Shown here: in pieces, positions 32,722 to 53,212 of the stretch | Layout of the letters: each line of letters opens with the position of its first letter | Position numbering within the stretch: the first letter of the stretch is position 1 | Source: Candidatus Melainabacteria bacterium 17Bon1m | GTDB lineage: Bacteria; Cyanobacteriota; Vampirovibrionia; Obscuribacterales; Obscuribacteraceae | Assembly (NCBI GenBank): GCA_032128875.1 | Contig: JAVLKG010000015.1 | Span: 28,346 to 92,345, forward strand | Length of the DNA: 64,000 nt | Direction of reading: 5' to 3' | Translations under genes and position numbers: made by a program | The notes under the pieces: generated by a model | What the model saw: only the letters and a program-made list of their open reading frames with translations | The model's database searches: none | Told to the model about the DNA's origin: nothing

Positions 32722-35064
32722 ATGTACCAGTTAGAAGGCGACAACCAGCAAGCTCTCGCCCCAAACGAGGCTAAAGTTGCCGAAGCAAAAGAGAAAGCCG
32801 CCCAGGGCATGCTCGCTGAAGTTCAAGGCGGTCGCAAAACGACTGCTGTCGTCGATACTGCAGAAAGAGATGCGAATCTGCCTCTTTCCGCAATGATGTA
32901 TTTCGGCGCCATACCGGGAGCTGACAAACCTCCTGAGCCGGTAAAAATGCCGGAAGCGCCAAAGGGTTTTGCAAACAATTTAGCCAAGTCTTTCACTTAT
33001 TCGCTTATACAAGCACCTGTCGATGGTTTAAGTCAGCTCGTCGACAAAAGCTTCGGCTCATCGTGGCAGAAATCACTGCACTTCATGGACGCTCCGGCGC
33101 CAGCGAAATACGGCACATCCGATTGGGCAGCACAGCAAATCGGTGGCGCAGGCGGCATGATCGCGCCTTACTTGCTTTTGCACACCGGTGTTTCAAAAGT
33201 AGTCGGACGCGAAGTTCAAACAGCCAACTCCTTAAGCAGAGCCAATATCGGCAGGTTCGCAGCGCAAGAGTCAGGCATAGCAGCCGTCTCCGGTACGATT
33301 TACGGCGGTGTTTTCACACCGGTAAATTCAGCGTCGCAAGACTTCTGGGGCGACCGCTTCAGAAATGCGGCAACAAGCGGTTTAACATTCGCCACCCTGA
33401 CCGGCAGCTCAATCGGCTTGCAAGGCTTGGGACGCTCTATGAGCGCTCAAGGACGCACAGCCTTCGGCGGCATGCTCCAACACGAAGTCGCTGCCGGCGT
33501 CTTATCGGCAGTGCCGGCTGGTATCGTTCATGCGGACGGCGGTTCGCTTTTGGCAGGCAAGGGCCTGGCAACAGGAAAAGAACGCACAGAAGCAATCACC
33601 ACATTCGCGATGGTGGGCGGCGTCTTTGGCGGCGGTCATCGCTTATTGAACAATTACCGAGCTCGCAATCAAGCGACTGAAACGAACGTTCCTGCAGTTG
33701 ACGCACCAGTCGGAAGCGTGAGAGCCGCAAACGTTTTCATGCTGGGCGAGCGCATCACAAAGCCAAGTGAAGCAGCAAAAATGCCTGAGGTGAAAGGCCT
33801 CACGGAACAGCCAGCCACTGGTGAGACGGCCAACACCGGTACAAAAGCCGAAGCCAATCTTCCGCTTCTCGAAGTCGGCAAGCCAACTACACGCTACCAG
33901 GGCGTTGAACCAAACGCTATCGTCGAAAGAGTCATCGATACCAAGGGCGGCGGCAAAATCGTCATGTTCTCGAATGGCGAAAAGGTCGTCGACATCCCCG
34001 GCGAGCCCATTCGTACACAGAAAGCAGGTGGACACGTTGTCGTCGAAGCACGCGACGGCAAAGTCTCCGAGACTCGCATCAAGAGCCAGATCCCACTTGA
34101 AGAAAAGCCGCTGAACGTAGCCAGCGGCGCATACGAACAAATTGGAAAAGACCTTTCCAATTTCGCAGACCGCCCATTCACACTCGACGGCAGACAATAC
34201 GCTTCGGTGGAAGCTTTCTATCAAGGGCTGAAGTGGCCTGATGCTGCAAAACGCGCAGAAGTAGCAGTACTCACCGGCAAAGAAGCAAAATACTCCGCAA
34301 GAGAAGCACCGAAATCACAAACTTTCGAGTACGAAGGGCAAACATACAAGCTCGGCAGCCCGGAGCATCATCAATTGATGAAGCGCGCTATTCGCGAAAG
34401 CTTGGAACAAAATCCGGAAGTGATGAAAGATTTTGTGGAAACTTATCCACGACCGATCGAGCACAAGACAGGAAGAAGAGAGAATCCACGCTCTGCATTC
34501 CCGGGCTCTGCATTCACTCGCATCCTTTCGGAAATCAGAGCAGAATTGCGTGAGAAGTACGGCATAACCAACGATGCGCCGGCCCCAATCAAACCTGCAG
34601 TCGAGGAAAACATGAGCAAGTCGGTCTCTGAAACTCTTCGCGACGTGGTCAGCTCAGGCAACGCCCCTGAAAGACAAAATCTCGATGTTTACTCGAAAGC
34701 AATGGAAAATTCGCCGCATCGCGTCAAGGAATATGTGACAACAGGCAGTGATTCGGTTGTGATGAAACTGACCGATGGCAATATGCTCAAACTCACAAAA
34801 GAAGGCGAATTGCCCCCGGCAAGATCGTTCGACATGCCCGTTGTAGACAAAGGAACAGCACTTGCCGATCAAATTACCGTCAATTGGTTCATTCAACCGG
34901 AAGCGAAGTCACCAGTTGCACAAGCTGATTTGATGCCATTCTTGCAGAGAATTAGACAAGAAGGCTACAGAATGATTGATCCATCGTTGTCTAATTTAGG
35001 CTATTACAACGGCGAAGTAAAACTGCTCGATCCCTGGGCAGTTGTAGAAATTCCGAAGCAATAA
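32722..35064 (+). CDS. Multidomain effector-like protein: Gly/Ala-rich N-module + NADAR domain + C-terminal minimal protein-kinase-like domain
   Basis: LSNFADRPFTLDGRQYASVEAFYQGLK ... RILSEIR (NADAR, about 34141-34550); GSDSVV..LKLT..IDPSLSNLG..KLLDP (kinase-like, about 34700-35061). Start trimmed to ATG 32722. Confidence 0.8.
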   Translation: MYQLEGDNQQALAPNEAKVAEAKEKAAQGMLAEVQGGRKTTAVVDTAERDANLPLSAMMYFGAIPGADKPPEPVKMPEAPKGFANNLAKSFTYSLIQAPVDGLSQLVDKSFGSSWQKSLHFMDAPAPAKYGTSDWAAQQIGGAGGMIAPYLLLHTGVSKVVGREVQTANSLSRANIGRFAAQESGIAAVSGTIYGGVFTPVNSASQDFWGDRFRNAATSGLTFATLTGSSIGLQGLGRSMSAQGRTAFGGMLQHEVAAGVLSAVPAGIVHADGGSLLAGKGLATGKERTEAITTFAMVGGVFGGGHRLLNNYRARNQATETNVPAVDAPVGSVRAANVFMLGERITKPSEAAKMPEVKGLTEQPATGETANTGTKAEANLPLLEVGKPTTRYQGVEPNAIVERVIDTKGGGKIVMFSNGEKVVDIPGEPIRTQKAGGHVVVEARDGKVSETRIKSQIPLEEKPLNVASGAYEQIGKDLSNFADRPFTLDGRQYASVEAFYQGLKWPDAAKRAEVAVLTGKEAKYSAREAPKSQTFEYEGQTYKLGSPEHHQLMKRAIRESLEQNPEVMKDFVETYPRPIEHKTGRRENPRSAFPGSAFTRILSEIRAELREKYGITNDAPAPIKPAVEENMSKSVSETLRDVVSSGNAPERQNLDVYSKAMENSPHRVKEYVTTGSDSVVMKLTDGNMLKLTKEGELPPARSFDMPVVDKGTALADQITVNWFIQPEAKSPVAQADLMPFLQRIRQEGYRMIDPSLSNLGYYNGEVKLLDPWAVVEIPKQ

Positions 35065-35066
35065 AT

Positions 35067-38000
35067 TTAGTCACGCGGAACAGGAACAGGACCGGTTCCA
35101 TCAATAACCGGCGTCCAGTCATGATTGCGGAAGCGACGCGGCAATCCGAGACCTGTGGGAGACTCGATGAAAGCTTGAATCCAAGGGATATTGTTGTTAG
35201 GACCGCCATACGGCAATATAAGCGCGCTGCGCACATCTGAAAAGCGATACATCGAATTCGACATCATAGTGGTCAAAACGTCTTGCTCATGAGGCGTCAA
35301 ACTGTTGTAGAAGCGGTTGTTCGGGTGGTTAAGCGGCAGATAGGTGCTCGGACTGTCCACCACCTTCACGTTCAGGTGCGGCTTGCCGTCTGCTGGGAAA
35401 AGATTTGGATAATCGGCTTGATTTGTCCATGGATTTTTTCCACCAGGAACATCATGGCGACCCAAAGTTCCAACCGTGATGTCTTGAATGAGCGGCTTGC
35501 CATCCTCCATAAACCGGCTTTGCAAGACACTAAAGACGTTCTTTTGATTTTGATCAAGCAGTTTTGGTATTTGGTGACCACTCATCGCATAGTCATCGAT
35601 AAAAACGAGACGCTTAGTTTTCAGAGATTCATAAAGCGGTTTCAAGCTGTCCGGCACATTCTTCAGTGATTTATATCGAGCCAGAGCACGAATATCATTC
35701 ATCGAAACGAAATTTTCCGGAGTTAGCCCATTCACTTTTCCGTAAAGGTTATTGATCATGTAAGAGCTGCCGCCACCGGCTTCCAAGCCAGTGATAATGA
35801 GCATGTTCTTCGGATCGCCGCCGGGCACAGTTTCCAATATTTTCTTATGCAACTGTGCAGCCTGAGTCATCATGTCGGCATAGGTATTGACTTGCGTGCC
35901 TTCCATCAAAAGCCTTGCTGCAAGCCGTTGTTGCTCAGCGTTCATTTTTCCGAGAAAGTTCTCAATTTGCTGCGGTGTCGCTTGTGGTTCAAATATCTGC
36001 CTGTACAGAGCGTCTGTTTGATAGTCGTTGGCGCCGTGCAAACGCGCAGTATCTGCGGTCAAATCTCTGGCGACTCGACCACCTGTTACTTCGTTTGAGT
36101 TAACAACATGCGCATTGTCAAACTGTTCTCTCACTGTCTTGGCATACTGCTCGCGCAGCAGTTTGGCGGCTGCATCCGAATCGCTAATGCCTTCAGCGGC
36201 TTTTAGACGATTGATCTCGCCAAGCATCTGACCGATTTTGTCTTTGACGGCGCCGTTGTTGCCGGTCATCTGCGCGATTGACAGGTCGTAAATGTTTGGA
36301 CCTCTGGTAAATCCATCCATATCTGCAACAAGCAAATTCTTCACACTGGAAAGGATTTGACGTTGCTCTGGTGTGGCGTTTGCAATATTGTCGAAGAACA
36401 TCACGTTGTTGAGATTGTATTCTTCCCTCAACGAATTGATGCTGTCCTGCTGCTTCTGAATCAACTCGCGCGTGGTTAATTTCTTGCCGGGCAGAACCGC
36501 ATCGAGGTCCCCAGCAGCTTCCTTGGTAAATTTAGCGATTGCATCCTCGGCTGCTTTGATTTTTACGGCTGCTTCCTTGATTCTCAAAAGCTCGGCGCCG
36601 GTCAAAATGCGGACGTCTACATCAAGTCCGCTGTTCGCTCTGAACAAATGAGCCAAACCATTGCCATCACTTGCACCATCCAGAGTGAAGACAGTTGCTG
36701 TGGGAGGGCCACTTTCTTCAGTGAAGCCGCGCGAACGATTGCGCCAACTCCAACCATCAATCTTCTCCGCCTGCTCACGCAAGGCTTCCATGCGCTGATT
36801 GATAGCCTTGTTGGACATGTTCGGTCCAGACTGCTCCATCAGTTCACGCACAATCTTTTGCTCGTCAGCGGTGAGCTTACGGGTGACGCCGTCGATAGTG
36901 TAATCGCCGTTGAATAGGTCGTTGAAACTCTCTTTGGTGATTGGGCGATTGCCAAACTTCGCGCTTATCTGCTCGGCAAACTCTTTGAGTTCATCCGGTC
37001 GCATCAAACCGCTAGGGGCATCTGTAGTGGGTCGAAGCTGCTCGCCTTCTCCCTCACGGCGAGTCGGTGGTGCCTCTGCGTCTTCTTTGGGTTTTACCTT
37101 CTCATCAGGTGTTTCAGTGCGACGCACGACAGACGGATTGGCGTCGACAACCGGCTCATTAGCTACGCGCACAGGTTCTACACCATCGCGTCCAGGAACG
37201 ACAGGTTGCTCAACTACAGGTTCATCCATACGTGCACGAACGAATGTTCCGTCTTCATGAGGGACTACTCTTTGCGCAGGCAAGTTAGCATCAGGTGTGC
37301 CGCGCACAGCAACCTTAGCTCTTGCTCCCAAGTCCTCTAGGGTAGACGCGGCACTTCTCACATACGGACTGGCTGCCGTCCAACCTTTTCCTGCCACGTG
37401 CATGCCAGGGGCCAGCACCCATGTACCCACGCCGCCGCCCAAGCCACCAAATGCGGTAGAAGTAGCAGCCATCTGCATAAATTCCTTGAAGTCGCGAGCC
37501 TCTGCGCCAGCCCGCATAGTTCCGGACAAACCGCCGCCCGCCATACCGGCAAGTACATTATCCGGGGTGCTCTTAATCAACTGCTTGAGAAATGTGCGAC
37601 TTTGCTCTTCCATAGATTCGGCAATGGACTTCTTGAGCATTTGCGCAACGGCCTGCTCTTGTCCTTCCTTAGAAATTTGTTTGGCAAGAATACCAATTGC
37701 TTCATCTGTAATCTTGCCACCCTGCGCAAGTCCTTCTTTGACGAGGGTCGCGGCACCTCTTTTGAGAGCGGCTTCACCACCTTCTTTAAGCAAATGCCGT
37801 CCACCAAGAAACAGTACTTTGTCTGCTGCACTGGTGGCAACGCCGGCTCCCAGGAAAGTTGTAAAACCATCGGCGAAACCGGTCGCCCCATCAAGGGCCA
37901 CCTGACTGCTTCCCCAATCGTAGTCACCGCCCATGATGGCGCCTTTGGCTCCAACTTTAAAAACAGCCGCCGCAGCGCCAGTGTAAGCCAACAACGACAA

Positions 38001-41000
38001 ACTGACGCCACCCGTAAAGAAAGCGCCACCAACAGCTCCAGCCGCAATGGCTGTATCGACGACCGCATCCGCCAATGCTTCTTTAGACGACGCGTGCATG
38101 TCGACCATTTTGTAGACATTGTCGACGTACTCCCGCATTTTTGCCGGGTCTTCAACCATCTTAGCGGCTAGCTGGTTGACTTCATTGTCCAATTGATAAC
38201 CAGTGCCATCCCAGGCACGATCTACAAACCCACTGCCAAAGCCGGATCTTGTCGTAGCTGCGTCATTAAGTGCATAGAGGAATTCAGAACGAGCATCTCT
38301 GCCATTAACCTGACGAAGCGCTTGACGTTGGTCTTTACCGCCCAATTCGGAAACCAAATCAGCCGAAAGATCGGAGCCATATTTGCGGGCGTATTCGTCT
38401 CTTACCTTCTGAATTCTTTGCTGAATGACCTGGTCGATTTCAGCTTCCGTCTTACCTTCTGACTTCAACTGAGTACGATCATTAAGTGCAGCCAGCGTCT
38501 CTCTTATCTCTGCTTCACTCGTCCCGAGCCCTAGTTGGTATGAGCGCAGTTTGTCTTCAGGACGCATCTCGCCCTGTTCCATGGAAGCAAGAGCGACTTT
38601 GCGCTCATCTTCGCTAAGGAAGCCCATGACTCGCTCCTGGAAGCGTTTGTCCGTGAGAATTCTTTGTCTTTCGGCAGCGCTGGCACGCTGAATATCTTGA
38701 TACGCGCCCTGTTCATCGTCGTTGAACACACCGTTATTGAGATCCATCTGCAACTCTACGGAAAGCTTGCCGGTTTCAATCAGCGGCTTGGCATACTTTT
38801 CATAGTCGGAGCTGCCCATGGCACGGCGAGCGGCGTCTTTAAAATTCTCGGAGAAAGCCTTATCTTCAGGCGTTTGCGGATTGGTGATGCGGTCGCGCAT
38901 CTTCGGATCTTTGTCGAACGCGCCCTGTATATCTCTTATGACTTGCGCTTCGTCAGAATCGAAATAAGATGCTTGCAGATTGAGTTTGTCGAGAATTCCC
39001 ATCTGCGGTTTTTCGCCGCGCTGGACTTGTTCTAGCAATCCGAAGGCGACTTTCTGTTCGCTAGGATCAAGTGATTGCTTGAGTTTTGCGTCCAGATCGT
39101 CTTTGAACTTTTTGTCTGCGTCGCTTGCACCCGGCTCGCTGGCGCGTTTGTACTGAGCACGCTCGTTATCTGTCATGTTTTCGAGCGTTTTATAGATTGC
39201 AGCTTCGTCGTTGTTGTACCAACGTTTATTGTCTTCGATAGCGTCAAGAACCGGTCGACGCTCTTGTTTGCTGGCATCGTAAGAGGTCGCGTTCTTTTTG
39301 TCGGTGATCACCTTCATTGTGCGATCGAATTCTTCTTGGGAAAGATAGGTCTTCAATACCTGTTCGATCTTGCCGATTTGCGCTGGATCGTTCTTTAAAC
39401 GATCCCAGTCTTCTTGAGACATGTTCTCCACTGTGGAGATCACATCCTGCATACTCGAGTCATAGATATTGCCACGATGGTTGGCGAGCTGAGTGACGAG
39501 CGATCCGCCTTTTTGCGTGATCATGTCTTCCCATTTCGCGAGTTCGTTTATTTGCGAATCACCGGAGAACCATTTACCGGCGGCGGCTTTCAACTGTTCG
39601 TGTGTTTTGGTGTAATAGTCGAGAGCCTTCTGTTTGTCCGATTCTGAAACAGGTGTTTCCAGCGTTTGATTGTTGGCGATGCGCTTGCCTAAAGCGTATC
39701 TGTCGCGCTCTTCCTTACTCATGCTGGCGAGAGAATGTTCGATGGCTTCTTCGTTGTCGCCTAACCAACTTCTGTTGTCTGTTACTTGAGTGGCAACAGA
39801 GAGCTTGCCGTACTCGGCATAGTCTTGAACATGCCGCAATTCGGTGTCAGTAAGATTGCCGCCGGTCAGGAAGTTGAGAACACCGCCTTCAAATTTCTTT
39901 TTGAGTGTGTCTTTACCTTCGCCGTTTGTAAAGTAGTCTCTGACTTCTTTCGGCGCACGACGCATTGATTCCTGGAACATCTCAGCATTGCCGGCATTGA
40001 CGGCGTTGAGCGCCAATTGTTTGGTTTCTTCCGGCGTGCGGTTATCGTGCCCTTTGATATAAACCTTGGCCGAGTCTTTGGTTGCAGCAGAAAGATTCGG
40101 ATCGTTTTGAATTGCGTCGTTCAGTCCATGTCCATAGCGACGACGATACTCAGCGTCTGTCTGCGCGATTTCCGCAGCACTCATTGTCTCAAGAGTATTG
40201 CGAACAATCTTCTCAAGCTCGGAATTAGAACGCCCGAATGTCTCACCACGTTCTACCAAAGCTTGCCTGATTGTGCCTGCATTGTCAGCTCCATCAGGGC
40301 GATTGAGCAACGACATTGCCTTCTCAAGGTCGGAGCCTTTCATTTCATCGGCAAATTCTTTCTCCAAATTCCAATTGGCGCCGTACTTTGAAGCATGCTT
40401 CTTGTCCCAGATGTCCCTTATCATCTGTCTTTCGGCAGCAGTCTTGTTTTCCAACGTGGCATAAACAGTATCTTTATCAGTGCCAGCGCCCCACATGAAT
40501 CCTTCGTTCATTGCGGTTTCGAGAGCATCGGCAGCGGCTTCCATTGCTTTGTAATTGACGTCCTGGCGAGAACCATCCATCTTGCGCCACTGCTTGTTGC
40601 CCGCTGTGTCTTCCTGATAGTAGGTTCCGTCTTTCTCGACTTTGACGGTCCCTTGCCATTTGGAGCCGTCTTTGGTGTTCGTCCAATTCTTTCCGTCTTT
40701 TGTTTCCCAAGAAGCATCGCCTTCGGTCATTCTATTGACGTTGCCATCGGCACCATAAGCAAAGGTGCGCTTCACGCCTTTGGAATCGAGAGTTTCAACA
40801 ACTTGGCCGGCTTTATTCTCGACTCGATAGACACCGGACAGATCGCTGCGCCTGGTGTTGCCGTCTAACTGTTTGGTGACGACGGTATTGTTTTCAATGT
40901 AATTGTAGTTACCGTCCGGCGTTACCCAAGCAGCGCCTTTAGACTTGTCGCCTTTATTCGACTCCCAATTCTCGCCATCTTTGCTAGTCCAGACTTTTCC

Positions 41001-42863
41001 GTCTGCTTCTTTGATTTCAGACAGTTTGCCATTGGTGCCATACTTAAATTCACGCACCTGATTGTCGGCTGATTGTGTGCGTACGACGCGACCTTGTGGG
41101 TCAAAACTTACTTGGCTGCCGTCCTTGTTTTTGACTTCGAAGCCTTTGACTTTACCGTTATCGCCATACTCAAAACGAGTACTGGAGCCGTCTGCGTTGT
41201 CGGCTCTCTGGATGGTAGAGTTTTTGTCGAACGTCAGATTGCGTCCATCTGTGGTTCCAATCCTGCGATTACCTGTAGCGAGATCGTTTTCTTGATACGT
41301 TCCATCAGGTCGCACCAAAACGTTCATCTTGCGAGTTTGGTTGCTGCCTTCCTTCGTCCAGTTAGTACCGTCTGTAGTGCTCCACTTCGCGCCGGTGCTC
41401 TCAGTTACTTTTGAAATTTTGCCGTCTTGACCGTAGTCAAACTGGCGCCAGGTGCCGTTGGATGCTTCAACGCGCGAGATCCGGTTGTCTTTGTCGACTG
41501 AGATAGTCGACCCGTCCGGCTTGAAGACGCGCTTGCTGCCGTCAGCCGAAACTTCGCGATAGAGACCTTCTTCATTCGCCTCGAGCCGCCCTTTCCAGCT
41601 CTCTTTGGTCTTTTCATTGGTCCAATTCTGCCCGTCTTTGGAGGTCCAAGTGCCGGTAGAGTCGGTCATTTTGCTCATGCGACCTTGATCGTCGTACTCG
41701 AATTTTCTTGCCTTGCCTCGGGCATCAACAATTTGAGTGACTTGATCCAGTGCATTCTTGGTGACTTGCGAGCCGTCACGATTGGTGCGCTCAAGCCGGG
41801 TCTTGTCGCCTTCTTTGACTTCGTTCCAGCCGTCGCTGCGTTTTGCAACTTCCTTGCCGTCTGGGTATTTCTCGCGCACCGTACCGTCAGCATCAACCGA
41901 AATTTCAAGTTTTGCAGAATTCCTTGTGCCTTCTTGTTGCCAAGTTTTGCCGTCTTGTGTGCGCCAAACACTACCGTCCGGTTCTTGAACACCATTAAGC
42001 TTTTTGTTGGCGTCATAGGTGAAACGCCTTTCTGCGCCCGCCTTGTCTTTAACCGCGACGACGTTGCCGTCCTTGTCTCGCGAAACAGTCGAGCCGTCCA
42101 TTTTGAAAGTGGTCGTCTCGCCGCGAGCGTTCTTGACTGTCTGTGCGCCGTCTTGCGCCACCGATATTTCGCCCGAGCGATTTTGCCGCGTTTTCTCATT
42201 CGTCCAATTCTTACCGTCGCTGCTGCGCCAGGTAGAGCCATCCGGCTCGACAATTGAAGCCAGCCTGCCGTCGCTTTCATAGCCGTATCCGCGCTTGGCA
42301 CCGGAGGCATCGATAGACGCGGTAACACGATGCTTCTCATCAAACAACAACTGCGTGCCATCGTTGTTCATGCGCTTCGTTTCGTTGCCGTTAGCATCAA
42401 GCATGCTGACGCTGCGGTCAGGATTGCGCTTCATCTGCCTGCCGTCAGGCATAACCAGCGTATAAGTGCCGTCTTGTTCGAACTTCACGTCTTTGACGGG
42501 GATTTTCTCGCCAGTTTGTTTCAAAATAAGAGACTTTCCGTCCGCCGAGCGATTCCACTCGGTGCCGTCGGTTTCAGTAATGCGCACGACATTCCCGTTG
42601 GCGTCTCTTCCCGCGTTTACCGTGTAACCACTTTCGCGTTTGAAAGCCTCGGTCTGCTGAATCGCATTGGGATCCGCAAGTTGCCCAAGCAACGCTTCCT
42701 GACTCGGAAGTGATGCAATTTCCTCACGTTTTGCAGCGGCGGTTCTGGTAAGTTGCTCGAGCCCCTCAACTGCCTCATTGGCGGCGTGATCCTCTTCCAC
42801 CTCTTCCGGCGGATCCTCAATGCGAGACTCTTTCTTAGGTTGAGCTTCTAAGGGCGTAGACAC
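35067..42863 (-). CDS. Giant 2598-aa protein: YD/RHS-like beta repeats, annexin-like repeats, Gly-rich hydrophobic segment, C-terminal PRTase-like domain
   Basis: F.YD..G.l..v.E.DG..W.S.DG..W repeats (about 42620-40570); GTD/DE..I...L....ER..Y annexin-like units (about 40545-38320); AIAAGAVGGAFFTGG..; RLVFIDDYAMSGHQ and PYGGPNNN near the C-terminus. Confidence 0.85.
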   Translation of the reverse strand: MSTPLEAQPKKESRIEDPPEEVEEDHAANEAVEGLEQLTRTAAAKREEIASLPSQEALLGQLADPNAIQQTEAFKRESGYTVNAGRDANGNVVRITETDGTEWNRSADGKSLILKQTGEKIPVKDVKFEQDGTYTLVMPDGRQMKRNPDRSVSMLDANGNETKRMNNDGTQLLFDEKHRVTASIDASGAKRGYGYESDGRLASIVEPDGSTWRSSDGKNWTNEKTRQNRSGEISVAQDGAQTVKNARGETTTFKMDGSTVSRDKDGNVVAVKDKAGAERRFTYDANKKLNGVQEPDGSVWRTQDGKTWQQEGTRNSAKLEISVDADGTVREKYPDGKEVAKRSDGWNEVKEGDKTRLERTNRDGSQVTKNALDQVTQIVDARGKARKFEYDDQGRMSKMTDSTGTWTSKDGQNWTNEKTKESWKGRLEANEEGLYREVSADGSKRVFKPDGSTISVDKDNRISRVEASNGTWRQFDYGQDGKISKVTESTGAKWSTTDGTNWTKEGSNQTRKMNVLVRPDGTYQENDLATGNRRIGTTDGRNLTFDKNSTIQRADNADGSSTRFEYGDNGKVKGFEVKNKDGSQVSFDPQGRVVRTQSADNQVREFKYGTNGKLSEIKEADGKVWTSKDGENWESNKGDKSKGAAWVTPDGNYNYIENNTVVTKQLDGNTRRSDLSGVYRVENKAGQVVETLDSKGVKRTFAYGADGNVNRMTEGDASWETKDGKNWTNTKDGSKWQGTVKVEKDGTYYQEDTAGNKQWRKMDGSRQDVNYKAMEAAADALETAMNEGFMWGAGTDKDTVYATLENKTAAERQMIRDIWDKKHASKYGANWNLEKEFADEMKGSDLEKAMSLLNRPDGADNAGTIRQALVERGETFGRSNSELEKIVRNTLETMSAAEIAQTDAEYRRRYGHGLNDAIQNDPNLSAATKDSAKVYIKGHDNRTPEETKQLALNAVNAGNAEMFQESMRRAPKEVRDYFTNGEGKDTLKKKFEGGVLNFLTGGNLTDTELRHVQDYAEYGKLSVATQVTDNRSWLGDNEEAIEHSLASMSKEERDRYALGKRIANNQTLETPVSESDKQKALDYYTKTHEQLKAAAGKWFSGDSQINELAKWEDMITQKGGSLVTQLANHRGNIYDSSMQDVISTVENMSQEDWDRLKNDPAQIGKIEQVLKTYLSQEEFDRTMKVITDKKNATSYDASKQERRPVLDAIEDNKRWYNNDEAAIYKTLENMTDNERAQYKRASEPGASDADKKFKDDLDAKLKQSLDPSEQKVAFGLLEQVQRGEKPQMGILDKLNLQASYFDSDEAQVIRDIQGAFDKDPKMRDRITNPQTPEDKAFSENFKDAARRAMGSSDYEKYAKPLIETGKLSVELQMDLNNGVFNDDEQGAYQDIQRASAAERQRILTDKRFQERVMGFLSEDERKVALASMEQGEMRPEDKLRSYQLGLGTSEAEIRETLAALNDRTQLKSEGKTEAEIDQVIQQRIQKVRDEYARKYGSDLSADLVSELGGKDQRQALRQVNGRDARSEFLYALNDAATTRSGFGSGFVDRAWDGTGYQLDNEVNQLAAKMVEDPAKMREYVDNVYKMVDMHASSKEALADAVVDTAIAAGAVGGAFFTGGVSLSLLAYTGAAAAVFKVGAKGAIMGGDYDWGSSQVALDGATGFADGFTTFLGAGVATSAADKVLFLGGRHLLKEGGEAALKRGAATLVKEGLAQGGKITDEAIGILAKQISKEGQEQAVAQMLKKSIAESMEEQSRTFLKQLIKSTPDNVLAGMAGGGLSGTMRAGAEARDFKEFMQMAATSTAFGGLGGGVGTWVLAPGMHVAGKGWTAASPYVRSAASTLEDLGARAKVAVRGTPDANLPAQRVVPHEDGTFVRARMDEPVVEQPVVPGRDGVEPVRVANEPVVDANPSVVRRTETPDEKVKPKEDAEAPPTRREGEGEQLRPTTDAPSGLMRPDELKEFAEQISAKFGNRPITKESFNDLFNGDYTIDGVTRKLTADEQKIVRELMEQSGPNMSNKAINQRMEALREQAEKIDGWSWRNRSRGFTEESGPPTATVFTLDGASDGNGLAHLFRANSGLDVDVRILTGAELLRIKEAAVKIKAAEDAIAKFTKEAAGDLDAVLPGKKLTTRELIQKQQDSINSLREEYNLNNVMFFDNIANATPEQRQILSSVKNLLVADMDGFTRGPNIYDLSIAQMTGNNGAVKDKIGQMLGEINRLKAAEGISDSDAAAKLLREQYAKTVREQFDNAHVVNSNEVTGGRVARDLTADTARLHGANDYQTDALYRQIFEPQATPQQIENFLGKMNAEQQRLAARLLMEGTQVNTYADMMTQAAQLHKKILETVPGGDPKNMLIITGLEAGGGSSYMINNLYGKVNGLTPENFVSMNDIRALARYKSLKNVPDSLKPLYESLKTKRLVFIDDYAMSGHQIPKLLDQNQKNVFSVLQSRFMEDGKPLIQDITVGTLGRHDVPGGKNPWTNQADYPNLFPADGKPHLNVKVVDSPSTYLPLNHPNNRFYNSLTPHEQDVLTTMMSNSMYRFSDVRSALILPYGGPNNNIPWIQAFIESPTGLGLPRRFRNHDWTPVIDGTGPVPVPRD

Positions 42864-44573: not shown

Positions 44574-44646
44574 AAGAAAACAACCGAGGAAGCCCCGTTT
44601 AGAAATCCACTCACAACACATCCACAACCAACAGGTAAAACAGCCG

Positions 44647-45576: not shown

Positions 45577-45592
45577 ACCAATTAAGCGTGGT

Positions 45593-45633
45593 GGCGCGTT
45601 GCACGCGCCCTCGGGCGGCATTAATGCCGCCCG
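45593..45633. repeat. REP-like palindrome pair
   Basis: GGCGCGT-tgc-ACGCGCC and the perfect 22-bp palindrome CGGGCGGCATTAATGCCGCCCG. Confidence 0.7.
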
Positions 45634-45722
45634 CCGACAGCTTTGGGAGCCAATAGTTCAAAAAAAACCAATACAAAATCCGGCAGCGGAACCGCACATA
45701 TTCCGCAGCAAAGAAGGACAAA

Positions 45723-46679: not shown

Positions 46680-46690
46680 TCAAAAGGCCT

Positions 46691-46715: not shown

Positions 46716-46784
46716 GGTTGTGGGACCAAACAGGGCCATTACGAACTTCACTGAATCGGCACTAAGGAATTAGCTCGGGAGTTT

Positions 46785-49517
46785 ATGAGTAAGAAAAAGG
46801 ATCAAGGTTCGTCACAGTCATCGCACGACCACGGCGAGCACAAGCACGGACCTGGCTGCAATCACGATCATGAGCATGAACCAAAGAAAGAGGAGCACGT
46901 CCACGGTCCCGGTTGCTCGCACGGACATGACCATGAGCACGAACACAAGCACGAAGATAAAGAACACGTCCACGGTCCAGGCTGCTCGCACGGACATGAC
47001 CATGAGCACGAACACGGACACGACTATGGACACGGTGGATGCGGTCACGACCATGGACATGGGCACGACCACGATCATCACCACGAAAAAATTGACTACG
47101 ACAAGCGCAGACGCGAAGCGCCAATGACGACAAAAGCAGCTGAAACAGGCGGTTCAGCATGCCAGATGGAGCTGGATGTCGTCATTCCCGGCGAGGAAGA
47201 TGAAGTTGGAAGATTCGAACAATTAGAAAAGGAACTCGAAATGTTCATCGGCGTGACCGATGTTCACGTCCGAAAAGACGGCGATTTTCCGGAAGTCTGC
47301 ATTCACTACACGCCAGAAAAAGTTTCACTCGAAAAGTTACGTGACGCGATCAATTCAATCGGCACAGCGGTCAGCAAGCGCTATTTACAGCACACATGGT
47401 TTGTTCGAAACATGGAATCAGCGCAATGCGGATACGTAATCGAGCACTCCTTGCACCGCATGCCTGGAATACTTTCAGCCAACGTCGCATACGCAGCAGA
47501 ACGTCTGGTAGTTGAATACGACCGCGAATTGACACGGCCGAAACAGATCAACAAGCGTATCGAACTTCTAGGCTACGAGCTGGAAGAGCCAGAGAAAGGT
47601 CATGCGTGTTCTTTCCATGCACACGGCAACAGCGGGCTGGCTCCAAAGATTCAAATGCCACTCACAATTGCGGGCGGAGTACTCTTGGTGGCTGGTTTCG
47701 GCTGGCAACATTTGGTTAATCCGGCGGACATAGTCGGCGAAGTGCTTATGTTTCTCGCCATGGTTTGCTCTGGATTCTTCCCATTCAAAGGTGCGCTAAG
47801 CTCAGTCAGACAGGGCGTTTTCAGTATTGAAACATTGATGGTTCTCGCAGCAGTGGGAGCAGGACTCACTGGTGCTTTTTTTGAAGGCGCTTTCTTGTTG
47901 TTCCTCTTCAGCATGGGTCACGCACTGGAACACCGAGCAATGGACAAGGCGCGAAACGCGCTCGATGAGCTCGGCAAGCTGCGTCCACAGAATGCACTTG
48001 TCAAAAAGGGCAATGACATGGTGGAAACACCTGTCGCAGAAGTCCAGCGCGGAGACATTGTTGTAGTCCGACCAGGGGACAGAGTTCCTCTAGATGGAAC
48101 CATAAGATCAGGCAAATCCTCACTTGACCAAGCAACAATCACAGGTGAGTCTGTACCAGTCGCAAAACAGGTTGGTGATGAGGTTTTCGCTGGCACTATA
48201 AATACTGACAGCGCACTCGAAGTCGAAGTAACAAAACTATCTTCAGAGTCTATGCTTGCAAAAATTGTTGACCTCGTGTCGGAAGCAGAAGCACAAAAGG
48301 GTGCCAGCCAAAAGTTCGCACAAAAGGTCGAAAGGACGTTTGTACCGATCGTTCTGATCGCAGCTCCAGCCTTGACCGTGGGGCTCATGCTCTGGGGACT
48401 TCCATTGAAATTAGCTGTTCTTCGCGGCGTTTCGCTTTTGGTAGCCGCATCTCCTTGCGCATTGGCGATTGCCACTCCGGCCACGGTACTATCAGCGGTG
48501 GCGCGAGCCGCCAAAGCCGGCATTTTGATCAAGGGCGGAGTTCACCTAGAAACGCTCGGAAACGTAGAAGCCATCGCATTCGACAAGACGGGAACACTCA
48601 CAATCGGCAAACCGAGTCTTGTCAGCATCAAACCGGAAACAGGAATCAGCGAAACAGAACTACTGCAACTCGCTGGTGATGCCGAAATGCATTCCTCCCA
48701 TCCGCTCGCGCTCGCAGTAGTCAACGCGGCGAAGTCACGCGGTTTGACCCTCGGAAACTGCCAAAACTGCGAAGCAGTGCATGGTCGAGGAGTGAAATCA
48801 TCAATTGACGGAAAAGAAGTTTGGGTTGGAAGCGCGTCGCTGTTCGACTCAGACCCGCTTCCGCAGACGATTTCTGATGGTGTAAAGGAATTAGAGAAAA
48901 ATGGACAGTCAATTGTAATTGTCCGCAGCGAAGGCAAATACGTAGGAGTTCTGGGAGTTGCTGACACCGTCCGCAACGAAACCAAAACGGTTCTCAACAA
49001 GCTAAAGCAAATGGGCATCAAGCGCAATGTGATGCTTTCCGGAGACAATCAAACAGTCGCGGAGGCAATCGGATCACAAATCGGAATCGATGAAACACGC
49101 GCACCACTAATGCCAGACGGCAAAGTGAAGATGCTCAAAACGCTGTCTGAATCAGGCGGGGTTGCAATGGTCGGTGACGGAGTCAACGACGCCCCCGCTC
49201 TCGCAGCAGCGTCGGTTGGCATCGCCATGGGGGGCACGGGCTCTGACGTTGCGCTGGAAACAGCGGATCTGGTGTTGATGAGCGAAGGCTTGAGCCGCCT
49301 GCCATTTGCGGTTGAACTCTCGCGCGTCGCAACACTGACAATCAAACAGAATATGTCTATCGCACTTGGGGTAAGTGCGCTTCTCATCGTTGCGACAATT
49401 TTCGACCTCGTCCAAATCTCCAGCGCTGTGGTCTTGCACGAAGGAAGTACTCTGCTCGTCTTATTCAACGGCTTAAAACTGATCAAATTCAAAGGCTCAG
49501 AAGGCAACGTTGCATAA
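46785..49517 (+). CDS. Heavy-metal-translocating P1B-type ATPase, P1B-4 subclass, with His-rich N-terminus
   Basis: TGES, SPC (ASPCAL), DKTGT, HP, GDGVND and HEGST motifs; N-terminal HGPGCxH repeats and two HMA-like domains. Confidence 0.95.
46896..47023 (+). repeat. Intragenic 69-bp tandem duplication encoding [17 protein letters not shown]
   Basis: Near-identical units start at 46896 and 46965. Confidence 0.85.
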
Positions 49518-50269
49518 TGTTCCACCTGCGTACAAAGCTAGCGTTTGCCACCACTTTGTGTGCGCTCGTCAATTTGCAACTTTTATCCTCTTGCGCTTTA
49601 GAAAACCGATACTCTGCGCTAAAGAGCGACGAACCTAAAGCAACAGAACTGCCATTCACCAAACACCCATCAATGCTCAAATCCGGCGCATCGGTGAATG
49701 ATGTGCTGAGCAAACGGGTTGTCTGCGAAAGCTATTTCGACGGCAAGGATACGATTCAAGTGATCCTTCTTGGAGATAGAGTTGTTCACGAATATCAAGA
49801 CGGGGCAGCAAGTGACATAGCGTATTTTGAGTCAAATGGTTCAAATCCAATTCAAAGCGGCTTTGGAACCGGTAATTGGGTACTTACCAATTTTTTCACT
49901 GACTTCAAAAAGCAAAAACAACTTGAAGGTCAAGCAAATCTCTCTATTCGAGTAAACTCAAATCAAACTTGCGAGGTCGTAACAAAAACCATTTACGTGC
50001 CCGGGCGAGAACCATACATAGGCGGGGATCCCACCGATCCGAAGGTGGAGGAATTTTGGCAGCAGGTGCGGTCAGCAGTAGCAGCAATTGAATCAGATCA
50101 TCTGCGCCTTCCAAGTCCCATGCACAAGTCAATGACTCTAGAATTAGTCGTCGGCCGAGATCGCACTATGTTTCCGCGATATCCAACACCATTTGACGGA
50201 CAGATGGTAAGAGATTCAAGCGGCACCATGCGTCACACCAAAGCATTTGTGAGGGACGGTGCTGAATAG
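49517..50269 (+). CDS. Secreted hypothetical protein, paralog A
   Basis: Signal-peptide-like N-terminus; ATG overlaps the ATPase stop (TAATG); GQAN, YVPG, EFW and GRDR..FPRYP shared with the next gene. Confidence 0.75.
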   Translation: MFHLRTKLAFATTLCALVNLQLLSSCALENRYSALKSDEPKATELPFTKHPSMLKSGASVNDVLSKRVVCESYFDGKDTIQVILLGDRVVHEYQDGAASDIAYFESNGSNPIQSGFGTGNWVLTNFFTDFKKQKQLEGQANLSIRVNSNQTCEVVTKTIYVPGREPYIGGDPTDPKVEEFWQQVRSAVAAIESDHLRLPSPMHKSMTLELVVGRDRTMFPRYPTPFDGQMVRDSSGTMRHTKAFVRDGAE

Positions 50270-50912
50270 TCTAAGATTTTTGGGGTTTGCTATTACTCTT
50301 AGCCTTTGTGCTGAGCCCGCGTTTTCGTTGACACCGGACACTGAAAAGAAAGATGGCACAGTCCTTGCTTACACAAACACATCTCGTACACACATTGAAG
50401 CGTCGATTGTTTGCGACAGCCTGACGCTCAAGTATAAAGACGGAAAAACGAAGAAACTGAGCTTGCGATCGCTGAATAGCAAAGGCGCAACAGATGTCAC
50501 CGCAATGTGGAATCTTTTTAGCTTCTACATTGTGAAAGACATTTGGCGCGGGCTGATTCACTCCGACAAAGTGATGGGGCAAGCGAATATAAGCCTTGAA
50601 ATTACGTCCGACGGCAAGCACAAAGTCACTCGAAAAGCTGTCTATGTCCCGGGATGCAAGCCATGCCTGGGGAACGGCCCACTTCCGGCTAAAGCTCAGG
50701 AGTTTTGGAAAGGCGCATATTCTGCTGTTGAATACATCGAGTTCAAGGAAATGAAAATTCCAGATTTCAAAGTTGCGTCAGCAACTATGGATGTTGTTTA
50801 CGGGCGCGATCGTGAAGTCTTCCCGCGCTATCCGTTTTGCGATTATCAGGGCATTCTCAAACGCGACAAAGAAGGTTTCATCTATCGCGCCAAAACACTG
50901 AAGACGCGCTAG
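50259..50912 (+). CDS. Secreted hypothetical protein, paralog B
   Basis: Signal peptide; same GQAN / YVPG / EFW / GRDR..FPRYP blocks; overlaps paralog A by 11 bp. Confidence 0.75.
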   Translation: MLNSLRFLGFAITLSLCAEPAFSLTPDTEKKDGTVLAYTNTSRTHIEASIVCDSLTLKYKDGKTKKLSLRSLNSKGATDVTAMWNLFSFYIVKDIWRGLIHSDKVMGQANISLEITSDGKHKVTRKAVYVPGCKPCLGNGPLPAKAQEFWKGAYSAVEYIEFKEMKIPDFKVASATMDVVYGRDREVFPRYPFCDYQGILKRDKEGFIYRAKTLKTR

Positions 50913-50994
50913 CTGCGCCAGCTTGGACGAACAAGTCCCATGGCATCGCTAATAAGTTCAATCAAAAGCCGGCGCGCCGCCGGCGCTCCCAGGT

Positions 50995-51729
50995 CTAACG
51001 TTTCTGATTTTCCGGCTGTTCTTGCGGTTTTACCACATGTAGTTTTTCACCGAGACCGCGGAAGAACTGCCCTGTTTTGCTGCCGGCTTCCTTCGCACCT
51101 TCGATTATTCTTTGTTGAGTCTGCGGATTGCGTGCCGCATCAACAGCCTGATCACGAGCCTGTCTCTTCACTTCAGTTTCAATTAGATTGGAGATTGACG
51201 GATTGGTGATTATTGACGTTTTGTCAAACAAACGTCTGGCTTCGCGCAATTGCACACGCTGTTCCGGAGGTGCATTCTTGATCACTTCGTCAAATGCTTT
51301 ATCCTTGGCGAGTTTCAACGCGAGCGCTTCAGGTCCGATTAGAACATCGCGAACCAGCGGAGCGCCATTGCGAATCACTCCATTTACGTCGCGGCGTTTA
51401 CCAGCCTCGACAACACCTGTCGCTTGTTGCACTTTCTCGCGACCAATTTGCTTGCCTTGTTCAACAACTTCGCCCGTGATGCGCCTGGTAGTTGGAGAGT
51501 TCACAACCTGCTTACCGTGATCAACTATCTGTCCAACAGCCTCACTGTTGCGTACATCTTGAACTGTTTCTTTGCCTTTCTCCCAACCTTTTTGAGCAAC
51601 CTCTCCAGCGCCTTTGCCGAACTTTTTCAATCCATCCATGAAGCCGGAGCCTTCGAAGAGGCTGCTTCCGCTATTTGATTGTCCGGAATTTTGTTGTACT
51701 TCTCTAGTTGAAGCTCGGTCGCCGCCCAT
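50995..51729 (-). CDS. Hypothetical hydrophilic helical protein
   Basis: 244-aa ORF with GAGGG RBS; amphipathic LEA/apolipoprotein-like composition. Confidence 0.7.
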   Translation of the reverse strand: MGGDRASTREVQQNSGQSNSGSSLFEGSGFMDGLKKFGKGAGEVAQKGWEKGKETVQDVRNSEAVGQIVDHGKQVVNSPTTRRITGEVVEQGKQIGREKVQQATGVVEAGKRRDVNGVIRNGAPLVRDVLIGPEALALKLAKDKAFDEVIKNAPPEQRVQLREARRLFDKTSIITNPSISNLIETEVKRQARDQAVDAARNPQTQQRIIEGAKEAGSKTGQFFRGLGEKLHVVKPQEQPENQKR

Positions 51730-51943
51730 GATTTGCCCTCATAGTAGAAACTGCGAAACTTTGGCTCTCACGCTGAGCCAAACGATTTCGCCGATTGGAG
51801 ATTCTGAAAATATAGGCATGCTATGTGACAGGCGCGTGGCAGCTTCATTAAGCGACTAATGTCGGAGAGGCGCTGCATTCCAAACCTGGGTATTTCACTC
51901 ATTTCCGAGGGAAATACCTGAGAAAATCCCTCAGCAGCGGCAA

Positions 51944-53212
51944 CTAAACGTAGCGGCGATTGTCGCCCTGTGCCGTTCTCATAATCTGGGCGCCCGCATA
52001 GAAATTGCGCCGCGGATCACCAGGAGTTCCATTTCCGGAGCCTGGGAAAACCATGTATTCAACACCGCCGCGAACACCGCCGGTGCGCGGGCTGGCAGGG
52101 ATACCGAGTTCTTGTGCTAACGCGATAGAACCTTCGCCTAATTTGTGACGCGGTCCAACATCTGCGAATACGGCAAAAGCTACTTTACCGTTGTATCTAA
52201 CAGCGGCAATATCGCCGAGTTTTATTCCGAGGTGTTTGTATTGTCCACCCGGCAAGACGAAGTAAGGAACGGTCTCGGCGTTTACCGAACGACCGTCAGG
52301 ATAGCGAAGCGATGTTTGCGTTTGGCCGGTCGGATCAATTTGCCTGGCGCGCGGGCTGCCGTCGGCGTCGATGGTCATACCGGCACGGAAGTAGACGGGG
52401 CGGCGGCCGTTGACCAACCCATTTTTGGCAGCATCGAATGCTTGATTAAGTGCAACCTGGTCTGTGTTGCCATTGGTCATATCGGTGATATTTGGAATAG
52501 GAAGAATTCCGTCACTCGGTCGATAATTCGGTTGGAAACGATCCCAGACCACTGGCTGCGTACGTTGGTTGGGCTGATATTGTTCGATGCGACGCGGCAT
52601 GTAGAGCCCATCGGCGCGCGCTTCAGGCTGGAGCTGATCTCCTCTCGTAATAGGTTGCCTAGCTTCGACAAAGTTGCTCTTGTCGGACATATTCTTTGTC
52701 CACCAATCGCCGTAGAAGCCGACTTCACCGTTCTTGCCGCGCTGTTGTTTGTATGTTCCGTCACCGTTGCTAACTGCGCGAAGAAGCACTCTTTCTTTGC
52801 CGCCCTCGTTGGTGAATGCGTGAATTAGAGGCTTTCCGCAAGACATGTCCAGTTCCAAACGAAGCTGTCGCTTGGTTCCATCTCTATCGGTGATTTCCAA
52901 CTTGTCTACACCGGTCGACAACAGTTTTTCCACTGCTTTCAATTTGTCCTGAGCAGTAGCTGAAGGGTTCTCCAAAGCTGCACGGGCCTGAGCGGCTGGC
53001 GAGTCGCCTGTTTGCGCAACTAGGTCAGGGCGTGGCTGAGCACTCTTGTCTTGTCCATCTCCGGAAAAACGATAGTAATCGAGCGAGTTCGGACGCGCAT
53101 TTTGCACGCCTGTCGGGTTGTCGCCCGTGAATTGGTAGAGGTTTCGCTGGTTTCGGACGATAGAACTATCATCGTTGACCGCGCCAGATTTTTCTGGAAC
53201 GTCAGTACTCAT
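51944..53212 (-). CDS. Glycoside hydrolase family 75 (chitosanase-like) domain fused to an uncharacterised N-terminal region
   Basis: MTIDADG, DP..Q.QTS, NAETVPYFVLP, LGDIAAV and AVFADVGP..KLGEGSIALA GH75 motifs. Start trimmed to ATG 53212. Confidence 0.85.
   Translation of the reverse strand: MSTDVPEKSGAVNDDSSIVRNQRNLYQFTGDNPTGVQNARPNSLDYYRFSGDGQDKSAQPRPDLVAQTGDSPAAQARAALENPSATAQDKLKAVEKLLSTGVDKLEITDRDGTKRQLRLELDMSCGKPLIHAFTNEGGKERVLLRAVSNGDGTYKQQRGKNGEVGFYGDWWTKNMSDKSNFVEARQPITRGDQLQPEARADGLYMPRRIEQYQPNQRTQPVVWDRFQPNYRPSDGILPIPNITDMTNGNTDQVALNQAFDAAKNGLVNGRRPVYFRAGMTIDADGSPRARQIDPTGQTQTSLRYPDGRSVNAETVPYFVLPGGQYKHLGIKLGDIAAVRYNGKVAFAVFADVGPRHKLGEGSIALAQELGIPASPRTGGVRGGVEYMVFPGSGNGTPGDPRRNFYAGAQIMRTAQGDNRRYV

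Follow-up and report, generated by a model that had tools for sequence, protein, structure and literature searches.

The window analysed here is a stretch of 64,000 nucleotides from the genome of Candidatus Melainabacteria bacterium 17Bon1m (a 7.55-Mb assembly in 35 contigs, 93% complete), and the question it raises is why two very large genes, both apparently ending in enzymes, should run towards each other and stop two bases apart. We refer to their products as P0001 (781 or 801 amino acids (aa), depending on the start codon; family A) and P0002 (2598 aa; family B). A sequence-only reading of positions 32722 to 53212 had described them as polymorphic effectors without immunity genes. We found instead that the partner gene beside an exchangeable tail follows the tail and not the trunk to which the tail is attached, and that neighbour and tail co-vary in three tail classes (15 of 17, six of six and two of two loci). 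With modest confidence, we favour the explanation that the pair is one cassette of an Obscuribacteraceae-specific, polymorphic-toxin-like system, in which P0002 is the toxin-like protein and P0001 its tail-specific partner.

The convergence itself had been described correctly, down to the coordinates. The open reading frame (ORF) of P0001 spans 32659-35064 on the plus strand, where a TTG start gives 801 aa and the ATG at 32722 gives 781 aa, and that of P0002 (2598 aa) spans 35067-42863 on the minus strand; the stop codons, TAA at 35062-35064 and TTA (TAA in reverse) at 35067-35069, leave two bases in between. A terminator scan around the stops found no terminator-like site between them, and the junction shows no conservation at the DNA level within the genus. 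The two proteins and the spacer are made up of the following parts:

32722..32958, plus strand: polar N-terminus of P0001, residues 1-79 from the ATG, no signal peptide (translation, predicted local distance difference test (pLDDT), hydropathy)
32959..33681, plus strand: module A, residues ~80-320 from the ATG (paralogs, AlphaFold2)
33682..34107, plus strand: low-complexity linker and short beta-rich stretch (composition; pLDDT <50 from residue 330 on)
34108..34557, plus strand: NADAR/YbiA/phage GP30.3-like domain, residues 484-633 from the TTG (Pfam)
34594..35061, plus strand: minimal protein-kinase-like domain, last 156 residues of P0001 (AlphaFold2, Foldseek)
35065..35066, no strand: spacer of the convergent stops (sequence; similar layout, with 1-146 bases, in 14 other loci)
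35070..36893, minus strand: exchangeable C-terminal tail of P0002 with a PRTase-CE-like core, residues 1991-2598, 608 aa (Pfam, relatives)
35577..35597, minus strand: putative phosphoribosyl pyrophosphate (PRPP)-binding loop DDYAMSG, D2423-G2429 (D2423, D2424 and G2429 invariant in 13 of 13 sequences)
36894..37283, minus strand: Pro/Val/Glu-rich linker, residues 1861-1990 (P 12%, V 12%, E 12%)
37284..38183, minus strand: Gly-rich hydrophobic module (B-TM), residues 1561-1860, with a hairpin at 1597-1638 (hydropathy, paralogs)
38184..40463, minus strand: annexin-like alpha-repeat array, residues 801-1560 (Pfam Annexin, 34.9 bits, cut-off 25)
40494..42653, minus strand: YD/RHS repeat region, residues 71-790 (Pfam RHS_repeat, E 8.3e-31)
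42654..42863, minus strand: acidic, polar N-terminus of P0002, residues 1-70, no signal peptide (conserved in close orthologs)

A search for PRTase-type tails, i.e. tails of the P0002 type, in 101 genomes of the family returned 30 loci, 17 of them with a complete tail that ends an ORF. At 15 of these 17, from nine genera, a gene encoding a NADAR-like domain and a mini-kinase, in either order, converges on the tail gene, with stop-to-stop distances of 2, 22, 37, 22, 146, 22, 35, 6, 77, 49, 1, 12, 7, 25 and 4 bases. Among the other loci, two have the tail inside an ORF that continues beyond it, one stops at a contig end, eight hold only the central part of the tail, in ORFs of ~1,000-1,400 aa and with no partner, and two have a NADAR gene downstream on the same strand. 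Where orthologs of P0002 carry a PRTase-type tail, NADAR-like genes adjoin in all six loci (counting the window, where the domain is fused into P0001). The near-abutting convergent layout of P0001 and P0002 recurs in 14 further loci from 9 genera, more than chance would give. We read the two-base junction as the conserved layout of toxin-like tail and partner, and not as a sign of a missing partner.

The other two classes have partners of their own. Next to the P0165-type tail there is a leucine-rich-repeat (LRR) protein of 281-397 aa in six of six loci; in three orthologs of this type the LRR protein has 392-397 aa and its gene overlaps the giant gene or lies 14 bases away from it. The LRR gene is followed by an A-module gene in five of the six loci, which in the three orthologs encodes a protein with A-module and LRR. 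The third class consists of two family B paralogs of the present genome with homologous tails, each accompanied by an overlapping, homologous ORF (195 and 220 aa), and one of these loci holds a second copy of this ORF (184 aa). With a neighbour that co-varies with the tail in three independent classes, the description of the system as lacking immunity genes is not supported; what has been found are partner genes, which answers in part to the cognate immunity genes that the sequence-only reading had named as evidence for a standard interbacterial toxin class. In the explanation that we favour, P0001 is not simply a further effector beside P0002 either. In the window, the partner domains (NADAR-like and mini-kinase) sit in P0001 itself.

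The proteins with NADAR and kinase domains that act as partners have 648-833 aa, and the ten full-length ones that we examined, P0001 counted, all start with a Gly-rich, weakly hydrophobic module. This is module A in the window, in genome G240 and in the shorter genes of G274 and G160, where the giant gene is met convergently, at a distance of 6 and 35 bases, by a gene for module A and the mini-kinase (371-378 aa); in eight others it is a further module, which we named D. One additional partner combines LRR, NADAR and kinase. We rejected a relationship of module D to A or B (hhalign, 0.3% and 0.2%, respectively) and likewise homology between module A and B-TM (hhalign probability 0.4%). Six members of module D, of 462-1,768 aa, are present in this genome (C1:553455-554843, C14:71739-77045, C1:1036970-1039885, C5:584986-586827, C22:22867-24663 and C12:174226-176052), and the one on contig C12 has the same mini-kinase tail and lies divergently beside a family A gene. 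Short soluble NADAR genes are frequently found near partner genes; in-frame TGA stops in NADAR-like matches are the natural stops of such short genes. An intact stand-alone NADAR/GP30.3-like gene of ~160 aa also lies on contig C13 (~93,090-93,610). Four or more further species of the genus have it in highly conserved form, and some of these genomes gave no match to a PRTase-type tail. This gene could be an orphan antidote or a housekeeping gene.

The tails themselves move between trunks. As far as about residue 1920, P0165, P0167 and P0168 share 54-60% identity with P0002, and from there on they have no similarity to it; other relatives of P0002 diverge at about residue 2437 or carry an insert. 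Exchange also takes place between the two families: 37 of 146 family A tails match a family B tail at E<1e-6, e.g. those of P0137 and P0165 (47% identity over 1,174 aa) and those of P0001 and P0170 (51% identity over 146 aa). The P0002-type tail itself is found on the family A proteins P0142 and P0028, on trunks with annexin-like repeats and hydrophobic module that have no RHS region (1,915 and 2,026 aa) and on trunks without a hydrophobic module (1,452 and 906 aa). Tails are thus swapped at the linker, and one and the same tail can sit on any of three or more types of trunk, which confirms the domain swapping that the sequence-only reading had proposed to look for. This modular logic is that of polymorphic toxins.

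For the trunk of P0002 the picture differs from the earlier description. The 42 relatives of P0002 that we compiled have RHS, TEN_YD-shell and annexin annotations (TEN_YD-shell as a precomputed match; in P0002 itself the repeat region also matches TIGR01643 at 69 bits), and their tails are annotated as tyrosine or dual-specificity phosphatases, PRTase-CE, GP30.3 or FHA. One of them, from a Melainabacteria metagenome-assembled genome, is 86% identical to P0002 over residues 1561-1860. Both proteins had been thought to follow a single plan of disordered N-terminus, Gly-rich segment, linker and enzymatic tip; this holds for P0001, which has a disordered N-terminus, a Gly-rich module, a linker and enzyme domains, but not for P0002, where ~1,500 residues of YD/RHS and annexin-like repeats precede the Gly-rich segment. 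The annexin-like array is common to six other ORFs of the genome, three of which also share the hydrophobic module, and so belongs to a conserved trunk rather than to the cargo, as which it had been listed. The statement that no Rhs core is present needs to be divided, since the RHS repeats themselves are there, whereas a regular-expression search found the core motif PxxxxDPxG[LWF] neither in P0002 nor in 41 relatives. B-TM has Kyte-Doolittle windows of 1.42-1.53 in P0002, with a family B median of 1.62. Elsewhere, open frames of 7,221-18,420 aa contain the family B trunk or a PRTase-type domain (G132:C138, G288:C1, G228:C93 and G151:C13).

As to what the enzymes of the pair might do, the tail of P0002 can tentatively be described as PRTase-like. 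This assignment derives from the annotation of its relatives (PF24390, PRTase-CE, precomputed on P0161, P0163 and P0164), from its neighbours in the Atlas, which are PRTase-CE clusters (0.88), and from the invariant DD..SG loop, which we take to be the PRPP-binding motif of phosphoribosyltransferases; a sequence search of the PDB with the tail gave no match. The first enzyme domain of P0001 matches Pfam Phage_30_3 with 58.1 bits (cut-off 36) and YbiA in the PDB (2b3w) with an E-value of 0.0013, and 20 of its residues are invariant in 13 of 13 relatives, among them E518 and H602, whose roles we assigned after PMC11125620. The second was predicted with a mean pLDDT of 91, and all 50 of the 50 Foldseek matches listed from the PDB are protein kinases (best E 2.5e-4, TM-score ~0.5), with G51, D129 and D146 invariant in ten of ten sequences and K66 present in at least 90%. 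There is no Pfam kinase match and a profile of the family recovered no kinase among PDB sequences, only the fold search doing so; the kinase named by the sequence-only reading is thus borne out at the level of the fold, by the exclusively kinase matches and the invariant Gly-loop and Asp residues.

In the mechanism that we favour, the P0002 trunk (YD repeats, annexin-like array and Gly-rich hairpins) and its Pro/Glu linker would carry an exchangeable PRTase-like enzyme that attaches a ribosyl-phosphate-type adduct to a target. P0001 would join a Gly-rich helical membrane-type module to a NADAR/YbiA-type N-glycosidase, predicted to take the adduct off and thus to serve as antidote or immunity in the manner of NADAR/YbiA antitoxins, and to a minimal protein kinase, which may have a supporting role. 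The weakly hydrophobic Gly-rich modules might bring the proteins into or onto a membrane after translation, and the 3' ends of the two transcripts are expected to overlap. In the portions of PMC11125620 on which we draw, NADAR and YbiA are described as antitoxins of ribosyl-transferring toxins (DarT1-NADAR, YarT-YbiA), and E. coli ybiA is reported to lie in an operon with ybiB, which encodes a predicted phosphoribosyltransferase-like protein. Given this antitoxin precedent and the ybiA-ybiB operon, addition and removal of an N-ribosyl-phosphate-type adduct appears to be the most economical reading of the two enzymes.

Several observations weigh against a toxin with its immunity protein. The match of the P0002 tail to Pfam PRTase-CE (22.3 bits) stays under the cut-off of 27, and two loci, L102 and L117, have a complete tail and no partner in the 1.5-kb flank. 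Classical immunity genes lie downstream on the same strand, whereas the partner here is convergent, large, membrane-module-bearing and equipped with two enzymes. Partner and cargo domains do not form separate sets, as NADAR-like and LRR domains are also found as tails on A and B trunks, and P0170 has a PRTase-type tail and a NADAR-like domain in one polypeptide, a fusion easier to reconcile with two pathway steps, or with an effector plus regulator, than with toxin and immunity. At family A loci, 27 of which were compared, there is no conserved neighbour; searches for secretion domains and for known secretion machines came back negative; and GGDEF and FHA tails suggest that some members act inside the producer. 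Furthermore, the related genomes that enter the locus counts are not independent observations. It is possible that the pair is an effector with its metaeffector, or that the two are enzymes of one pathway.

Adjacent genes for effector and metaeffector are known in Legionella. For the pair studied here, such an arrangement would mean that both proteins are delivered to the same target membrane or cytosol, where the smaller one tunes or reverses the modification made by the larger one, while soluble NADARs provide self-protection. In its favour, the Gly-rich module typical of the carriers is a constant feature of the partners too (A in four loci, D in eight), partner-type domains also ride on A and B trunks, short soluble NADAR genes often adjoin (with one elsewhere in this genome) and the two domains are fused in P0170. 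Yet no secretion machine is known in this genome, and some carriers of the tail are without any hydrophobic module. We give this explanation a rather slim chance.

The tight coupling of the two genes, with their predicted overlap at the 3' ends, would also suit an intracellular toxin-antitoxin or abortive-infection system, in which the NADAR and kinase protein restrains the giant protein and releases it upon phage attack. NADAR antitoxins and PRTase-CE-type domains are reported from conflict and defence contexts (PMC11125620, PMC13712802). Trunks of more than 1,500 aa with YD and annexin-like repeats, present as many paralogs per genome, are however unlike known defence effectors, and no sensor or mobile-element context was seen. 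We consider this explanation very unlikely.

On export, our results add to what the sequence-only reading had noted. None of the four proteins it had named (P0001, P0002, the GH75 protein and a 244-aa protein of the same span) has a hydrophobic signal peptide, while two nearby genes, at 49517-50269 and 50259-50912, do encode one, and neither P0001 nor P0002 has a Pfam trafficking or secretion domain. It had seen no marker of type VI or type VII secretion or of contact-dependent inhibition in the stretch; in searches whose controls matched in known genomes, the 93%-complete genome yielded no VirB4, TssC, FHIPEP, phage sheath (Phage_sheath_1), PAAR or WXG100 (VgrG was not searched), and hence no marker among these for the type III, IV, VI and VII systems or for contractile sheaths. 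ShlB/TpsB was not found in the genome either, by a search without a working positive control.

A rival explanation is the one that the sequence-only reading had inferred, with effectors without immunity that leave the cell by a lineage-specific export route and act on eukaryotic (algal or fungal, here extended to amoebal) targets, the convergent neighbour being simply another effector. The missing signal peptides and injection systems speak for it, and so do the eukaryote-type domains (annexin, RI-type LRR_6, DSPc, patatin, mini-kinase, EF-hand) and the family A loci without conserved neighbours; Zhang et al. 2012 (PMC3482391) read toxins without immunity proteins as host-directed. The tail-specific partner genes in three tail classes speak against it, and a target range limited to eukaryotes fits poorly with Zeta-toxin, GGDEF and FHA cargo. 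In addition, the GH75 and 244-aa proteins are not members, and the literature on secretion, effectors, predation and lifestyle of Obscuribacterales gave nothing relevant at the level of listings and abstracts. We regard this explanation as unlikely, if still worth keeping in mind.

The N-terminus of P0001 has pLDDT <50 over residues 1-10 and 40-65 in AlphaFold2, and no 19-residue window of it attains a Kyte-Doolittle value of 1.4. It is followed by module A, the common N-terminal trunk of family A, which is rich in Gly, Ala, Ser and Thr, weakly hydrophobic and predicted as six long helices (residues 83-320, pLDDT 86-98, from a 67-sequence alignment). The maximal 19-residue Kyte-Doolittle window of module A has a median of 1.33, with 17 of 150 members reaching 1.6, compared with maxima of 2.3-2.8 for true inner-membrane proteins encoded in the window. 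The module is matched by no model of Pfam or NCBIfam, and none of 67 members has a Pfam match within it. Foldseek returned nothing at E<=1e-3 from either the PDB or a viral library. The best structural matches by VIA-align were:

NDUFA11 (complex I subunit): Z 9.2
Tim22: Z 8.8
Tetrahymena supercomplex chain: Z 8.8
UCP1: Z 8.7
OEP16-3: Z 8.4

The top matches superpose with a root-mean-square deviation of 4.4-5.1 Å over 110-191 residues. As these Z-scores of 8.4-9.2 lie under the level of ~13 at which VIA-align can be trusted for helical bundles, we treat the resemblance to Tim17-type and carrier proteins as a lead only. Module A compares with giant-virus carriers at TM-scores of 0.35-0.40 and with OEP16-3 by profile at E 0.72; its look-alikes in the Atlas are unnamed clusters, partly of phage, with LPD22, LPD14, P22 gp16 and Ntox50 at low score only.

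Ten other ORFs of the genome contain module A, nine of 482-1325 aa and one a fragment of 119 aa, and their C-termini are unrelated to each other (LOG/SLOG, EEP and a weak HD match in Pfam, no match for the others). Together with the six paralogous ORFs that share the annexin-like array, this supports the expectation of shared modules with differing tips. Beyond this genome, the representatives of 1,312 clusters (50% identity) match a module A profile with E<=1e-3, and 390 do so with E<=1e-30; in the best 150 of the 1,312, the module starts at a median of residue 6 and is followed by tails of 1-1,988 aa. Of the 125 family A representatives scanned against Pfam, 37 carry a domain in the tail, as opposed to 88 without any, and the counts are as follows:

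LOG: 6
GNAT: 6
patatin: 6
GP30.3/NADAR: 4
LRR: 2
GGDEF: 2
FHA: 2
methyltransferase: 2
DSP/PTP phosphatases: 2
Zeta toxin, pentapeptide, HAD, TPR and Tcp10_C: 1 each

Searching the other 12 genomes of the genus gave no ortholog with the tail combination of P0001. Family A genes have no conserved neighbours, neither at the 17 loci compared within this genome nor in a set of 27 that includes loci of relatives. At five of the 27, a Hanks-type Ser/Thr kinase gene (in one case with TPR) lies near the family A gene, which may be chance.

This cargo could suggest that the proteins are not exported at all and that the Gly-rich modules are lineage-specific anchors or sensors holding enzymes at the membrane of the producer. 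GGDEF (two) and FHA (two) tails, along with GNAT, methyltransferase and HAD, would be at home there, some family B members bear FHA as well, the tail enzymes need cytoplasmic cofactors, Hanks-type kinases are found near five of the 27 family A loci, and no export signal was found. Set against this, the modules are far less hydrophobic than inner-membrane proteins (median 1.33 versus 2.3-2.8), there are patatin, Zeta toxin, a toxin-type phosphatase (Tc-R-P) and an EEP domain among the tails, and turnover is extreme, as illustrated by the tail combination of P0001 that was not found in the other 12 genus genomes. Trunks of YD repeats with annexin accessory domains are moreover typical of extracellular toxins, and annexin domains have been proposed to help breach target membranes (Zhang et al. 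2012, PMC3482391). A resident system is in our view quite improbable, even if GGDEF and FHA tails point to some members acting in a bacterial cytoplasm, perhaps that of the producer.

A more speculative idea, for which we see a small chance, is that Obscuribacterales, in which none of the injection machines searched for was found, have at least three unrelated modules (A, B-TM and D) that insert post-translationally into a target membrane and carry interchangeable enzymes across it or to it independently of any machine, and that the PRTase-like tail on one side and NADAR plus mini-kinase on the other form a new toxin-antidote chemistry. If true, this would amount to delivery without a machine, in the way in which carrier- or Tim17-type proteins insert, and to a phosphoribosyl-type modification together with its reversal.

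The system is apparently restricted to one lineage. In a sample of 300 genomes of the class, 87 of the 96 that belong to the family of the window contain module A, as do all three from a second family within the order, compared with none of 201 from the other nine families; trunk B was found in 85 of 96, in none of the three of the sister family and in none of the 201 elsewhere in the class. Match numbers for module A per genome are lower bounds, as up to seven were scored in each; the three genomes of the sister family (G015, G021 and G254, 2.8-2.9 Mb) have at least seven module A matches each and no trunk B match. Relatives of module A in 16 public loci come from Candidatus Obscuribacterales or Obscuribacteraceae (11), Candidatus Melainabacteria (two), Cyanobacteria bacterium DS2.3.42, bacterium isolate RI_106 and Drouetiella sp. 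Among the genomes searched, both families are limited to Obscuribacterales. The curated libraries Pfam and NCBIfam hold no model for modules A, B-TM and D, and listings and abstracts of the literature on Obscuribacterales and Melainabacteria contained no description of families A and B. The description as an apparently undescribed, lineage-specific system of paralogous modules with exchangeable tips is supported.

Obscuribacterales are common in water, soil and biofilm metagenomes, and we know of no cultured representative. The stretch 33500-36500, which includes the junction, is contained in metagenome runs from drinking water, aquifers, soil and plankton (ten studies), with at least half of its sampled words present in 16 runs. 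Three runs filed as RNA contain the P0001/P0002 region only as contigs of 15-23 kb with flat depth, and because of this length and evenness they do not demonstrate transcription. We believe that the results matter in several respects. These modular families account for about two dozen large genes per genome (here ten for A, seven for B and six for D), a supposedly immunity-less effector pair becomes a testable pair of toxin and partner with unusual predicted chemistry, and the question arises how, or whether, giant proteins without signals exit the cell in a lineage without known injection markers. They also provide new domain families to define and a handle on the lifestyle of non-photosynthetic relatives of cyanobacteria.

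The GH75 fusion and the gene at 50995-51729 had been counted among the members of the system, but they share no module with family A or B. The GH75 protein (51944-53212, or to 53338 with the longer frame; minus strand) is a true GH75 match (45 bits, cut-off 27), and six other ORFs of the genome share its N-terminal domain (residues ~60-180, counted from the ATG at 53212). One of the six has DPBB_1 (lytic transglycosylase-like) and two contain pairs of EF-hands, so that these ORFs may form a small module family of their own, tied to cell-wall glycans. The 244-aa polar protein (50995-51729, minus strand) has neither a paralog in the genome nor a family in Pfam or NCBIfam. The genes in between encode a metal P-type ATPase, two vWA-like paralogs and lipoprotein-like paralogs and have no relation to the system. 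At 43119-46679 on the plus strand, a 484-aa protein with three C-terminal DWMxDF repeats is followed by two paralogous vWA-like proteins of 309 and 318 aa, with a DGSGSM motif like that of a metal-ion-dependent adhesion site and acidic tails; ORFs matched by size only lie in the same order next to the P0002 orthologs of three further species in the genus (L054, L055 and L056). Directly after the heavy-metal P-type ATPase, at 49517-50912 on the plus strand, there are two overlapping paralogous genes (250 and 217 aa) with N-termini resembling signal peptides or lipoboxes.

Compared with known systems, the parts of P0001 have several counterparts. Chlamydial Inc proteins and the Legionella mitochondrial-carrier effector LncP are secreted effectors that insert into membranes, and module A shares with them, and with Tim17 and carrier folds, weakly hydrophobic Gly-rich helices, its best structural matches being Tim17-family proteins and mitochondrial carriers; it differs in that its Z-scores (8.4-9.2) are under the level of trust and it has no Pfam match, and neither a type III nor a type IV secretion system was found here. 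OspG, NleH and HopBF1 are minimal kinase effectors with a core of ~150-200 residues and without the usual C-lobe extensions, and we liken the mini-kinase of P0001 to them by its size and its place as an end domain, not by sequence comparison.

With the YD-shell toxins of the Rhs, Tc and teneurin type, P0002 has in common the YD repeats on the N-terminal side, with TEN_YD-shell annotated on its relatives, whereas it has no PxxxxDPxGL core, PAAR, TcA or signal peptide. As the repeats are separated from the tail by about 1,200 residues (annexin-like array and hydrophobic module), the tail is no usual shell-encapsulated cargo. With DarT1-NADAR and YarT-YbiA (PMC11125620), our pair shares a hydrolase of the NADAR superfamily beside a toxin-like enzyme that transfers nucleotides or ribosyl groups, and the last-strand His of the P0001 NADAR domain fits the phage gp30.3 type described there. 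It is unlike them in that the neighbour is PRTase-like and no ADP-ribosyltransferase, that the genes are convergent and that the NADAR domain shares its polypeptide with a mini-kinase and a membrane-type module.

The closest likeness is to polymorphic toxin systems, which are big multidomain proteins with a conserved N-terminal and central part (RHS/YD repeats and annexin as an accessory domain) and a C-terminal enzyme that is replaced through recombination, present as many paralogs per genome and with a neighbour that changes with the tail; the sections of Zhang et al. 2012 (PMC3482391) that we compared do not mention NADAR. Unlike those systems, the one described here has no recognised trafficking domain or secretion system, its trunk modules A, B-TM and D are undescribed, its partner-type domains also occur as tails, and its partner is convergent, large, membrane-module-bearing and enzymatic. 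Thus, a polymorphic toxin with a tail-specific partner is already known as a kind of system, and what is new are the trunks, the lack of a known export route and a convergent, membrane-tethered partner with two enzymes and a predicted PRTase/NADAR chemistry.

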